From Bacteroidales bacterium (GTDB lineage: Bacteria > Bacteroidota > Bacteroidia > Bacteroidales > G963667975): a stretch of DNA of 64,000 nucleotides. Positions 1 through 2,930 of this stretch are shown here, piece by piece. The DNA lies in the NCBI GenBank assembly GCA_963667975.1, contig OY764079.1, forward strand, positions 1,182,760 to 1,246,759, read 5' to 3'. How positions within the stretch are numbered: the stretch's first letter is position 1; each line of letters opens with the position of its first letter. The translations under genes and the position numbers were made by a program. The notes under the pieces are model-generated. The model was not told the origin of the DNA. It saw nothing but the letters and a program-made list of their open reading frames with translations, and searched no databases.

Positions 1-93
1 GCAGATAATGTTATTACTCGCTGGAATCAGATAAAGAGGATGATTTTGAAAATTATCCTCTTTATTGAAATTTTAATCTAAAAAGAATAAGTT

Positions 94-1422
94 ATGTATA
101 GAATAAATCCTTTCATTCATATTTATGAACGTGAAAATGTTAAAGCGCTTTTCAATACTCTCAATTTGAAAACATTGTATGCTTCACAGGAAATATACGA
201 CAAGATACTGACAGAGCCAACGGAACAATTATTAGAAGAAAATTTTTTAGTTTCTCCCGATTTCAACGCCTTGGGGTACTTTAATGAAAATTCCCCGAAA
301 CAAACAGACAATAGTATTTCAGTTGCCTATTTTTTACTTACTTCTGCGTGCAACTTCAAATGCAAATATTGCTTTGTAGAATCACGAATAGAAAAACACG
401 ATAATACTTTTATGTCAAATGAAACAGCAGAGAAGGGAATACAACTGCTAAATAGAAATGTTGAGAAGGAATACACAACTACTATTATTTTTTATGGTGG
501 CGAGCCTTTTTTGAATTTTGATGTTATGAAATACATTGTAAATAGGACACAGGAATTAGGAATGAATGTAAAATATAATGTAGTGTCCAATGGTAGCATA
601 ATGAATACTGAAATTATAGATTTCATAAAAAAGCACAAACTTGAAATAGGTATAAGCATTGATGGCTTAGAAAATACCAATGACGAAATGCGAATAGACA
701 GCAATAATAATGGCACATACAATAAAATAATTTCTACAATTTCCGAATTATCGCAAAATGAAATAAATTTTGGTGTGAGTTGTACCATTTCAAAACATAA
801 CATAGATAAAATAGACGAGATAGTTTCCATATTAGAACAATACAATATCAAAGGCATGGGTTATAATTTGCCTGCCGAGAATGGGAACATTATTGTTTCC
901 GAAGTCGAAAAACAAGTAATTGTAAAAAATCTATTAAAAGCTGAAGATATTATTTTTGAGAAACGTATTTTTGAAGAAAGAGTGATAAACAGGCGTTTAA
1001 AATCATTTGTAGAAAAAAAGAAATGGATTAAGGACTGTGCAGGATATGGTCACCAAATAGCAATAACTCCTAAAGGACAGGTTGGAGTTTGTCACGGACT
1101 TTGGCCTGATGAAATCAATCAAAAAGAGAATACATATTATGAACTTGATGTGAATTATGAGGGCAAAATAACCGAACACCCCATTTGGCAAGAATGGTTT
1201 AACCGAACACCTTTTAATATGCCTCAATGTTGGAATTGCGAAGCTATAAGTTTGTGTGGTGGTGGTTGTGCAAAAAATTCTTTCTTGCGTACAGGCAGTA
1301 TTTGGTATATAGACACCGATATTTGTATTCTAATGAAAGATGTTGTGCCTTGGTTAATTTGGAAATATTTTGACGTGAGAGTAAAAAATGAATTTTATAA
1401 TAACAAGCCAATGTCCGAATAG
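94..1422 (+). CDS. Radical SAM/SPASM-domain peptide maturase
   Basis: 442-aa ORF with a CxxxCxxC radical-SAM motif (SACNFKCKYC), a GGEPF motif and a C-terminal SPASM-type Cys cluster (CWNCEAISLCGGGCAKN). A Cys-rich small ORF follows 24 nt downstream. Confidence 0.85.
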   Translation: MYRINPFIHIYERENVKALFNTLNLKTLYASQEIYDKILTEPTEQLLEENFLVSPDFNALGYFNENSPKQTDNSISVAYFLLTSACNFKCKYCFVESRIEKHDNTFMSNETAEKGIQLLNRNVEKEYTTTIIFYGGEPFLNFDVMKYIVNRTQELGMNVKYNVVSNGSIMNTEIIDFIKKHKLEIGISIDGLENTNDEMRIDSNNNGTYNKIISTISELSQNEINFGVSCTISKHNIDKIDEIVSILEQYNIKGMGYNLPAENGNIIVSEVEKQVIVKNLLKAEDIIFEKRIFEERVINRRLKSFVEKKKWIKDCAGYGHQIAITPKGQVGVCHGLWPDEINQKENTYYELDVNYEGKITEHPIWQEWFNRTPFNMPQCWNCEAISLCGGGCAKNSFLRTGSIWYIDTDICILMKDVVPWLIWKYFDVRVKNEFYNNKPMSE

Positions 1423-1446
1423 GAGCGGACATAAAATAAAAATTAT

Positions 1447-1623
1447 ATGTATCTAAATAATGTTTCAGAAACTTTTTCTGATTTCTATTTAAGTAAAAAC
1501 GATATGTTTTTTACTGCTTATAATGGTTGTGCTTGCGGAGCTTGTGGAGCTTGTGGTTGTATCACAAATGAAAATACTCAAAGTATTGTGTGCAAAATAA
1601 ATGCTCAAAATATAAAAATATGA
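1447..1623 (+). CDS. Cys-rich RiPP precursor peptide candidate (58 aa, below ORF-track cutoff)
   Basis: Own translation: MYLNNVSETFSDFYLSKNDMFFTAYNGCACGACGACGCITNENTQSIVCKINAQNIKI. It sits directly after the rSAM/SPASM gene. Its TGA stop overlaps the ATG of the next gene (ATGA). Confidence 0.65.
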   Translation: MYLNNVSETFSDFYLSKNDMFFTAYNGCACGACGACGCITNENTQSIVCKINAQNIKI

Positions 1624-2009
1624 CTACTGCGCAGTGGTGGATTTCTATTATAGGAATGCTTATTACTATAATAGGCGTATTTTTTGCTGCAATTCAAGTG
1701 CATTTTCTAAGACAACAAATGCAAAAGCAAAATGATTGGAACAAAAAGAATGCTACATTTCTATATATAGAACAATGGATACAAAAGCATAAAGAAATAA
1801 ATGATAAAATTTTCAGTATAATGGCAAATGATAATTCTATTATCCACAAACCAGAATCTTTTTTGAAAGAAAATAAATTCAAAATATTTAATATTGTTTC
1901 CTATTTTGAGTATTTGGCGATAGGGATTAATGAAAACTATTTTGATGAAAAAGTATCAAAATTAATGCTTACAAATGTTGTGATTCAAACATTCAATACA
2001 TTACTTTGA
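1620..2009 (+). CDS. Single-pass membrane protein, paralog of 2114..2764 (function unknown)
   Basis: The ATG at 1620 gives MTTAQWWISIIGMLITIIGVFFAAIQ (a TM helix). The ORF-track start at 1590 is a GTG extension inside the precursor gene. It shares the YF(E/Q)(Y/I)LA(I/V)GI(N/E)E.YF.EK motif with the next ORF. Confidence 0.7.
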   Translation: MTTAQWWISIIGMLITIIGVFFAAIQVHFLRQQMQKQNDWNKKNATFLYIEQWIQKHKEINDKIFSIMANDNSIIHKPESFLKENKFKIFNIVSYFEYLAIGINENYFDEKVSKLMLTNVVIQTFNTLL

Positions 2010-2113
2010 ATACAGAAAAAATGAGACAGGGCGAGAAGTCGGATTCCATTTCCGTCAATTATCAGAAAAATGGATAAGAGAAAGTAGTAATATGAAATAG
2101 TAATTTTATTAAA

Positions 2114-2764
2114 ATGGCTAAGAATAAGAAAAAGAAAACTGAGAATAAATCTAAAATTCAATGTTATGAACGTAATACTGATGCCGATACAGTTAACAAT
2201 CGGCAGGTTTTTAGCGGTTATATAGACAATCAACCATTGTCAGTATCTATTGTTTCCAAAAATTTGTTCTTTGATAAAATTAAACCTATAATTGAACTTG
2301 TTGTAATTGTTGCTGGTTTAGTAATTGGTATTTGGCAACTGAATTATTTAGGCAGACAAGTTAAAGCGCAAAGTTCGCAAATTGAACAACAAAATTTATG
2401 GAATAAAAATGACGTAACTATACAATACACAAAAGAATACACAGAGGAAATGAAAATGTTAACTCATTCTCTAAAATTGTTTCCCGACACAACAAATTTT
2501 GAACATATTTTAAAAGATGATAATCAGCGAAATAAAATCAAAAACCTTGTAGCTTATTTTCAAATTTTAGCGGTAGGCATTGAAGAAAAGTATTTCAGTG
2601 AAAAAATTGCTAAACAAATACTTGTTCCAGAAACCATAAATTTATATGACGCATTAGTTAGATTAAAATATTTTGAAATAAGAAAAAAGGAACAAGGCGA
2701 TGATGTGGCATATGATTTTCAGCAATTGGCAAAAAAGTGGGAACAAGAAGAAAATACGAGATAA
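2114..2764 (+). CDS. Single-pass membrane protein, longer paralog of 1620..2009 (function unknown)
   Basis: 216-aa ORF with a Lys-rich N-terminus and one TM helix (IIELVVIVAGLVIGIW). The post-TM domain aligns with 1620..2009. Confidence 0.7.
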   Translation: MAKNKKKKTENKSKIQCYERNTDADTVNNRQVFSGYIDNQPLSVSIVSKNLFFDKIKPIIELVVIVAGLVIGIWQLNYLGRQVKAQSSQIEQQNLWNKNDVTIQYTKEYTEEMKMLTHSLKLFPDTTNFEHILKDDNQRNKIKNLVAYFQILAVGIEEKYFSEKIAKQILVPETINLYDALVRLKYFEIRKKEQGDDVAYDFQQLAKKWEQEENTR

Positions 2765-2804
2765 AGTTCCCTATGAGTCGAAGAAAAAGTAAAAGAGCGA
2801 CATC

Positions 2805-2930
2805 ATAACAAGCGGTTTAGCACAAGATGGGGTGTTTGCCCGTAGAAAGTTTTGTCGAATTTTGCAAGTTTTGCGCTTGCGCAAACTTTTGTGAAACCCT
2901 GCCTTGCCGCCAAGCCGCCGGACGTCAGAC
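2805..2930 (+). repeat. attC-like recombination site
   Basis: ATAAC box at 2805-2809 lies 40 nt after the stop codon, and a GTCAGAC box lies at 2924-2930. The arms AAGCGGTTTAGCACAAG and CTTGCCGCCAAGCCGC are imperfectly complementary. Confidence 0.5.

Follow-up and report, generated by a model that had tools for sequence, protein, structure and literature searches.

A compact radical SAM RiPP operon as probable cargo of a multigene attC-bounded cassette in Bacteroidota

The window analysed here, meaning the whole stretch of 64,000 nucleotides of contig OY764079.1, opens with a compact operon for a ribosomally synthesized and post-translationally modified peptide (RiPP), which we discuss as probable cargo of an integron-type cassette. 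Its features fall within positions 1–2930, with all genes on the + strand. The operon would include at least one precursor gene upstream of the window, of which only the last codons (Cys-Arg-stop, 1–8, recognized by identity with precursor 2 of the related locus L098) lie inside it. The spacer between precursor and maturase holds a 17-bp RNA hairpin of the attenuator or mRNA-stabilizer type (30–66, + strand; fold z −3.6). The order then continues with a CteB-like radical S-adenosylmethionine (rSAM)/SPASM peptide maturase with an N-terminal domain like a RiPP recognition element (RRE) at residues 1–70 (94–1422; 442 amino acids), a second precursor of 58 amino acids (1447–1623) whose stop codon overlaps the next start in the ATGA at 1620–1623, and two single-pass DUF4760 membrane proteins, the first frameshifted (1620–2098) and the second intact (2114–2764; 216 amino acids). 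A degenerate attC (2803–2930), folding on the bottom (−) strand, would close the unit at its 3′ end.

The open reading frames (ORFs) on which the first-pass annotation of this DNA was built (94–1422, 1447–1623, 1620–2009 and 2114–2764) are all in place, as is the stop/start overlap that it described. The product of the small gene, MYLNNVSETFSDFYLSKNDMFFTAYNGCACGACGACGCITNENTQSIVCKINAQNIKI, divides into a leader (MYLNNVSETFSDFY), a core (GCACGACGACGC) and a 20-residue follower tail; its five Cys residues are spaced by 1–2 residues and followed by the polar stretch ITNENTQS, just as had been quoted. The same annotation regarded this ORF as unannotated. The precursor is real, yet its product is already on record as a called protein (P0124) from the same 3.93-Mb contig, where the identical rSAM protein is found too.

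The proposal that this is a RiPP locus is borne out by the company that the small gene keeps. We gathered 58 related loci from metagenomes and genomes (given here as L numbers) and counted the 26 in which the rSAM protein is at least 45% identical and 250 nt or more of sequence lie upstream. In 23 of these 26 loci, searches by regular expression and hidden Markov model (HMM) turned up between one and five small Cys-rich ORFs with the leader, located upstream of the maturase; 18 loci with more distant maturases had none. The family leader follows the consensus M-Y-[LIF]-N-N-x-S-E-[DN]-F-x-x-F-Y, and the hypervariable cores, among them CSCSGCIRC, ACGNGGGGGCYNCKC and ACLMCTCNCACDCSCDCHCSCDC, are runs dominated by CxC and CxxC, with Gly, Ser, Asn and Asp. 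A small ORF beside homologous maturases in other genomes had been predicted; it is found, with a core that is itself hypervariable.

An HMM of the leader alone, built from 22 precursors of other loci with the window ORF left out, was run against the window cut into 2,572 stop-to-stop segments and matches the 58-residue ORF alone (E 1.2e-7, with a runner-up at 0.16). In locus L001, whose maturase is 81% identical, DUF4760 comes directly after the maturase, and the small ORFs before the maturase share the leader and differ in the Cys-rich core (for example, MYLNNVSEDFLSFYGCNDISMSGYICGNCSTCNSCGNCGK and MYINNISEDFYTFYGVNNDIITMVDCSCASCNCGRC). NCBIfam peptide models, including that of the SCIFF precursor, match none of the family precursors. 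The locus is a RiPP locus, with a conserved precursor family tightly linked to this clade of maturases.

The position of the window precursor, downstream of the maturase, and its follower tail set it apart within the family. When 1.84 billion representatives were searched exhaustively with phmmer, one relative of the 58-residue peptide came up, P0125 (57 amino acids, 61% identity over the full length), whose contig, L145, repeats the unusual order of maturase, precursor and DUF4760 with the ATGA overlap kept; across the peptide, the two genes show 12 synonymous codon differences. The tail motif NxQN[IV]KI occurs only in the window and L145 peptides. The other 22 of the 24 collected precursors lack it and end 0–13 residues past the last core Cys, with one exception that carries a 34-residue extension. 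To judge from these sequences, a precursor that lies downstream and carries a follower tail is a feature conserved within a sub-lineage. Because the 22 other precursors have no conserved follower tail, a Cys ladder paired with an acceptor hairpin is not the general logic of the family.

The maturase contains the Pfam domains Radical_SAM and Fer4_12. Its best NCBIfam matches are all peptide maturases, namely FibroRumin (TIGR04136; 216 bits), PapB (156), CefB (136), SCIFF (128) and QhpD (119), yet it falls below every curated cut-off (216 against 400 for FibroRumin, 156 against 340 for PapB and 128 against 425 for SCIFF). The sactisynthase model RumMC reaches only 75 bits, so that similarity favours ranthipeptide-type maturases, as represented by PapB and SCIFF, over sactisynthases. 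No curated family claims the maturase or its peptides, which make up a new rSAM RiPP family with Cys-rich peptides. Across 38 aligned homologues, the Cys residues of the CxxxCxxC motif (C86, C90 and C93) and the seven of the SPASM pattern (C315, C333, C379, C382, C388, C392 and C411) are all invariant. A scan of genome contigs with an over-generic rSAM pattern was of no use, returning only maturases of 24–29% identity, almost all from Firmicutes.

We built an AlphaFold (AF2) model of the maturase on the same alignment, with a predicted local distance difference test (pLDDT) score of 87. Its residues 8–66 form three strands followed by three helices (β-β-β-α-α-α, the RRE topology) at pLDDT >90, and its top Foldseek match is CteB (5WGG; full length, E 6.5e-25, template-modelling score 0.71); TigE and anSME are further best PDB matches of the model. 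By sequence, too, the best match in the PDB is CteB (phmmer E 1.4e-26), with SkfB at E 1e-10. An RRE at the N terminus of the enzyme had been suggested as possible; the predicted fold and the full-length match to CteB, which contains an RRE, suggest one, but the Pfam scan found no PqqD match in the maturase, and the assignment is thus backed by the modelled fold and not by any sequence model.

In the chemistry that we propose, the RRE-like domain would bind the leader MY[LIF]NNxSE[DN]FxxFY, and the rSAM core, together with two auxiliary SPASM clusters, would abstract hydrogen atoms in the hypervariable CxC/CxxC core. The most likely outcome would be Cys-derived thioether cross-links of the ranthipeptide or sactipeptide type, because CteB, PapB, QhpD and SCIFF are the closest relatives and because of the seven-Cys SPASM pattern, which has been reported for CteB, QhpD and Tte1186 (PMC10352776). 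The spacer hairpin would tune the ratio of precursor to enzyme expression.

It could also be that the operon is real and its product is no thioether antimicrobial, being instead a metal- or redox-binding peptide of the metallothionein kind, the result of another radical reaction (Cys oxidation, or C–C or C–O cross-links) or a peptide acting inside the cell. The composition of the cores, rich in CxC and CxxC with Gly, Ser, Asn and Asp, is typical of metallothioneins, and the SCIFF product is itself suspected to stay intracellular; the minimal cassette L146 consists of precursor and maturase with neither protease nor exporter, and below-cut-off similarity of this kind spans SPASM enzymes of diverse function, anSME and DynA among them. 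Against this stands the fact that the closest relatives in sequence and structure (CteB, PapB and QhpD) form thioethers, and that the seven-Cys pattern is shared, so we hold a product other than a thioether peptide to be rather unlikely and keep thioether cross-linking as the preferred reading.

The genomic setting of the operon is an array of cassettes. The first 10.3 kb of the window hold ORFs on the + strand only, each followed by an imperfect palindrome of 120–133 nt with AAC...GTT ends, and at least four attCs lie across 2.8–10.3 kb. An attC had been claimed at the 3′ end of the RiPP operon, and the site at 2803–2930 indeed aligns, as a degenerate copy, with the attCs that neighbour this operon in L098, L095, L001 and L094 (nhmmer E 2.2e-30). 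It was this homology that decided the assignment, given that a 196-nt region around the window site folded with z ~0 and that a MAFFT alignment of the heterogeneous attCs of the window was uninformative. On their bottom strands, the sites of the relatives fold in textbook attC fashion: the R stem is short (AACG/CGTT), the L stem is long, and a 4-nt spacer and a further position stay unpaired. The folds of the L098, L095 and L001 sites have z −2.1 to −5.1, and the family consensus structure comprises 39 pairs, of which 15 are backed by compensatory changes.

A covariance model of this attC family was run with filters off over both strands of all 64 kb. Besides the seed site, whose 110-bit score arises by construction since it was in the seed alignment, the model matches only 5816–5943, 7885–8014 and 8703–8832, all at full length, in one orientation and 3′ of an ORF. 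These belong to the attCs of neighbouring cassettes on the − strand, at 5814–5943 (GCTAAC...AAACGTTAGCC; model E 4.6e-4, fold z −2.2), 7883–8014 (GCTAAC...CCCGTTATAT; E 1.1e-8, z −9.4) and 8701–8832 (E 1.2e-8, z −4.4); the array survey adds a weaker attC-like palindrome at 10171–10298. As the first-pass annotation had it, no attC interrupts the operon: the covariance model and a scan for AAC...GTT duplexes found no attC-like site within 17–2802, the duplex scan serving only as a negative check, as it is unspecific at ΔG ≤ −12 (9–12 matches in shuffled sequence).

Two further elements sit at attCs of the array. An ORF-less hairpin element of 129 nt occurs at 2913–3041 and 8815–8943 (95% identical), in both places abutting the preceding attC; the hairpin unit itself, of 120 nt, is placed at 2922–3045, where it forms the next unit of the array, and recurs at 8823–8945. 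The R-prime box beside each copy reads GTCAGAC instead of GTTRRRY, with GTC at 8826 as in the window attC, and the element could be an empty cassette or a small attC-targeting element. At 3824–4631 on the + strand lies an ORF-less group II intron, recognized by Rfam (RF01999 at 4000–4117, 102 bits; RF00029, domains 5/6, at 4540–4615, 63 bits) and containing no reverse-transcriptase ORF. It is flanked by a left attC half (GGTGCTAAC ACGCGG) and a right half (CAGTTAAAC GTTAGCG) which suggests an insertion into an attC; the intron points the same way as the cassette genes. The cargo between 4699 and 10195 is of the conflict type and includes an FRG-domain protein (PADLOC PDC-S15-like), a WapI-like immunity protein (8048–8458) and a DUF4172-Fic protein (9041–10195; PADLOC SoFic model, E 1e-45). 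Such SoFic, FRG and WapI-like cargo is typical of cassettes.

The relatives show the operon bracketed on both sides, in line with the claim that it is cassette-borne. In L098, attCs at 432–557 and 2976–3101 enclose exactly two precursors, the maturase and one DUF4760 gene, with single-ORF units to either side. In L146, and with the same cassette in L094 and L147, full attCs (9425–9549 and 11355–11479 in L146) enclose one precursor and the maturase only. An attC flanks the operon on the 3′ side in the window, L095 and L001; in L095, the maturase and a 395-residue secreted protein precede it. The bracketing in L098 and L146 means that the operon can travel as one attC-bounded unit of 1.9–2.5 kb with variable accessory genes. 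The host of the window is a member of the Bacteroidota, with a type IX secretion system protein (Por_Secre_tail) and housekeeping genes among the signs in the window, and with homologue names that point to Bacteroidia, Prevotellaceae and Bacteroidales.

We therefore read positions 1–2930 as the 3′ part of a multigene attC-bounded cassette that carries a compact RiPP operon and stands in a chromosomal array of a Bacteroidota, either an integron or a CALIN, that is, a cluster of attC sites with no integrase. We put the probability of this at about 75%. Several observations weigh against it. The window attC has GTC where GTT is expected, and its bottom strand folds no better than shuffled sequence (minimum free energy −15.9 kcal/mol, with a mean of −17.5 for the shuffles; z +0.58). 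Together with the frameshift in the first DUF4760 gene, a sign of partial decay, this degenerate attC indicates that the window copy may be immobile and in part decaying. No left attC of the window cassette is seen, and in L083, L087, L096 and L149 the operon stands in no detectable attC context. No attI or promoter Pc is visible, and no integron integrase (IntI) appeared among the scanned ORFs of the window or in L146 or L098; with the array reaching the left window edge, IntI, attI and Pc would be expected upstream. As for the product, the chemistry is drawn from similarity, with all NCBIfam scores below cut-off, and the cassette genes include neither a peptidase or protease nor an exporter. 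An integrase fragment in L001 (8225–8632) was considered as a possible IntI and set aside, being a generic tyrosine-recombinase C terminus and as such no evidence for IntI.

These points lend some weight to a setting without integron cassettes, in which the 126-nt palindromes would be another kind of repeat (like repetitive extragenic palindromic elements or miniature inverted-repeat transposable elements, or terminators) and the RiPP operon would sit in a variable genomic island. The lack of a visible IntI, the poor fold of the window site, the ORF-less hairpin element and the insertion sequence (IS) elements nearby would all agree with such a setting, and complete integrons are very rare in Bacteroidetes according to the IntegronFinder 2.0 paper (PMC9024848). 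The palindromes nevertheless have the anatomy of attCs, with pairing AAC...GTT R boxes, the 4-nt unpaired spacer, the unpaired position, a long L stem and 15 compensatory pairs; they occur once per gene unit, always 3′ and in a single orientation; one of them contains the group II intron; and they bracket the operon precisely in two unrelated contigs with different neighbours. We consider a non-cassette origin improbable and retain the attC-bounded cassette.

How far this cassette extends to the left is indicated by the first nucleotides of the window. Positions 1–16 (GCAGATAATGTTATTA, that is, GCAGATAATG followed by TTATTA) align with tGCAGATAATGATTGTT of L098, and GCAGATAATG is identical at 10 of 10 positions to the end of L098 precursor 2 (..CPCR*), where TGC AGA TAA encodes the final Cys-Arg-stop. 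From this stop to the ATG of the maturase the distance is 86 nt in the window and 87 nt in L098. A hairpin between precursor gene and enzyme gene is a usual arrangement, and strong spacer hairpins of 14–17 bp occur in the window, L098, L001, L091 and L097, different in sequence in each case (z −2.6 to −6.3). Since positions 1–16 are homologous to a precursor end and its 3′ flank, the cassette begins before the first window position and probably has one or more further precursors there; on this sequence comparison, positions 1–2930 would be the 3′ part of a larger cassette, neither complete nor 2.9 kb long.

The first-pass annotation had instead started a complete 2.9-kb cassette at an R-prime box at 10–16 and cross-linked the five-Cys ladder of a single precursor to the Thr/Asn/Gln/Ser stretch behind it, in the manner of thurincin H; although GTTATTA loosely fits the GTTRRRY consensus and the follower tail is partly conserved in one orthologue (the C-terminal NxQN[IV]KI of P0125), this is very improbable, given that the box is the 3′ flank of the upstream precursor gene by alignment, near-equal spacing and the same kind of hairpin, that the true 5′ boundary lies outside the window, that 22 of 24 family precursors lack the tail, and that sactisynthase models score far under ranthipeptide-type ones. 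The proposal is thus partly supported: its core idea of a cassette-borne RiPP operon holds, and its boundary, its completeness at 2.9 kb and its sactipeptide hairpin fail.

The accessory part of the operon had been described as two paralogous membrane proteins. Both match Pfam DUF4760 (E 1.4e-11 for copy 1 and 2.4e-12 for copy 2), are ~31% identical to each other and carry one N-terminal hydrophobic helix each, but copy 1 is frameshifted at ~1999–2003, so that its ORF stops at 2009. By tblastn, homology runs in frame 3 to ~2003 and in frame 1 from 1999 to 2079/2098, with the conserved C terminus HYFEYRKNETGREVGFHFRQLSEKW lying in the other frame past that stop. Copy 2 is 57% identical to the DUF4760 protein of the L098 cassette. 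DUF4760 is limited to the closest sub-clade (the window, L001, L091, L093, L098 and L145) and is absent from the minimal cassette of L146. Clues to its function were few: PADLOC gave no match, a word search found few homologues, a literature search gave only an incidental mention, and an AF2 model (pLDDT 53) was too poor for a structure search. The DUF4760 proteins would be optional accessories, possibly for immunity or membrane handling. In a close relative of the two-DUF4760 arrangement (L142, 2963–4437), an IS1595-family transposase has cut the maturase to its last 156 residues, and in L001 an IS element (DDE_Tnp_1) lies between DUF4760 and the attC; RiPP cassettes are evidently eroded by IS elements.

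Elsewhere in the window, a 175-nt repeat occurs twice, 48 kb apart and 95% identical (3017–3191 and 51181–51355), each time just upstream of an ORF (3210–3818, DUF3157-like, and 51373–52293, with no Pfam match); the repeat may be a 5′ leader or promoter module common to both ORFs, and its distal copy is near an IS4/IS5-type transposase (49401–50225). A low-GC island at 18726–22791 (28–33% GC) encodes a DNA methylase, an AIPR protein and a TdeIII-type restriction endonuclease. The ORF at 41798–45499 (1,233 amino acids, no Pfam match) contains about eleven tandem repeats of 165 nt (55 amino acids), with a conserved RFYGGxGxGY motif in each.

More tentatively, and at a little short of even odds, we suggest that complete RiPP operons, made up of one to five hypervariable precursors, a dedicated maturase and optional accessories, spread among gut-associated Bacteroidales on a family of integron cassettes, each having a conserved 126-nt attC of its own; present-day mobility is putative. 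Best known as cassette cargo are single resistance genes, toxin–antitoxin pairs and, lately, phage-defence systems. A self-contained biosynthetic operon as cargo would widen the known range of what integrons mobilize and would offer an example from nature of a RiPP pathway that is both minimal and portable, at 1.9–2.5 kb. The suggestion that a mobile RiPP cassette is a new type of cargo agrees with a search of the literature, where nothing relevant came up on integron cassettes with rSAM, RiPP or bacteriocin genes; its thioether nature is the putative part. The uncurated rSAM/SPASM family, with its sharply conserved leader and extremely variable cores, is a target for studies of substrate tolerance and for genome mining, and well-formed attC arrays are documented here in Bacteroidota-type contigs. 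If the suggestion is true, integron recombination would be a platform for shuffling and disseminating natural-product biosynthesis in a phylum thought to be nearly integron-free.

Compared with known systems, the hairpin sactipeptides (thurincin H and subtilosin A, made by sactisynthases of the AlbA/ThnB type) share with this locus an rSAM/SPASM enzyme, closely spaced Cys residues and, in the window peptide, a polar stretch after the Cys ladder. They differ in that their synthases are the weaker matches (RumMC, SkfB), in that most family members lack an acceptor tail, and in a Cys spacing of 3 in thurincin H as against 1–2 residues here. FibroRumin is closer by HMM, its match covering residues 70–422, and, like PapB (NF047865), CefB (NF038107), CcpM (TIGR04068) and TIGR04463, it is a SPASM maturase paired with Cys-containing peptides; unlike the FibroRumin and PapB enzymes, the window maturase is below their cut-offs and has an N-terminal domain that neither match covers. 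A literature search found no paper on the FibroRumin system.

Another close likeness is to SCIFF and its maturases CteB and Tte1186 (thermocellin; ranthipeptides). Both systems follow a minimal logic of two genes, in which a short precursor of ~35–60 residues with a conserved leader and a Cys-rich C terminus stands beside an rSAM-SPASM enzyme, with an RRE in CteB and an RRE-like N-terminal domain here; no PDB entry matches the window maturase better than CteB in sequence or fold, and the seven-Cys SPASM motif is common to them. The window family differs in its low score with the SCIFF maturase model and the lack of any match to the SCIFF precursor model, in an unrelated leader, in having one to five precursors per locus with hypervariable cores where SCIFF is a single highly conserved peptide, and in being cassette-borne in Bacteroidota where SCIFF belongs to clostridia. 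As to the vehicle, multigene defence cassettes are already known. The RiPP cassette departs from the multigene cassettes with toxin–antitoxin and phage-defence cargo, found in sedentary chromosomal and mobile integrons, by its biosynthetic cargo, by the lack of a visible IntI and by a phylum in which complete integrons are reported as rare; it shares with them co-oriented genes between two attCs with none internal, and array neighbours of the defence and immunity type (SoFic, FRG and WapI).

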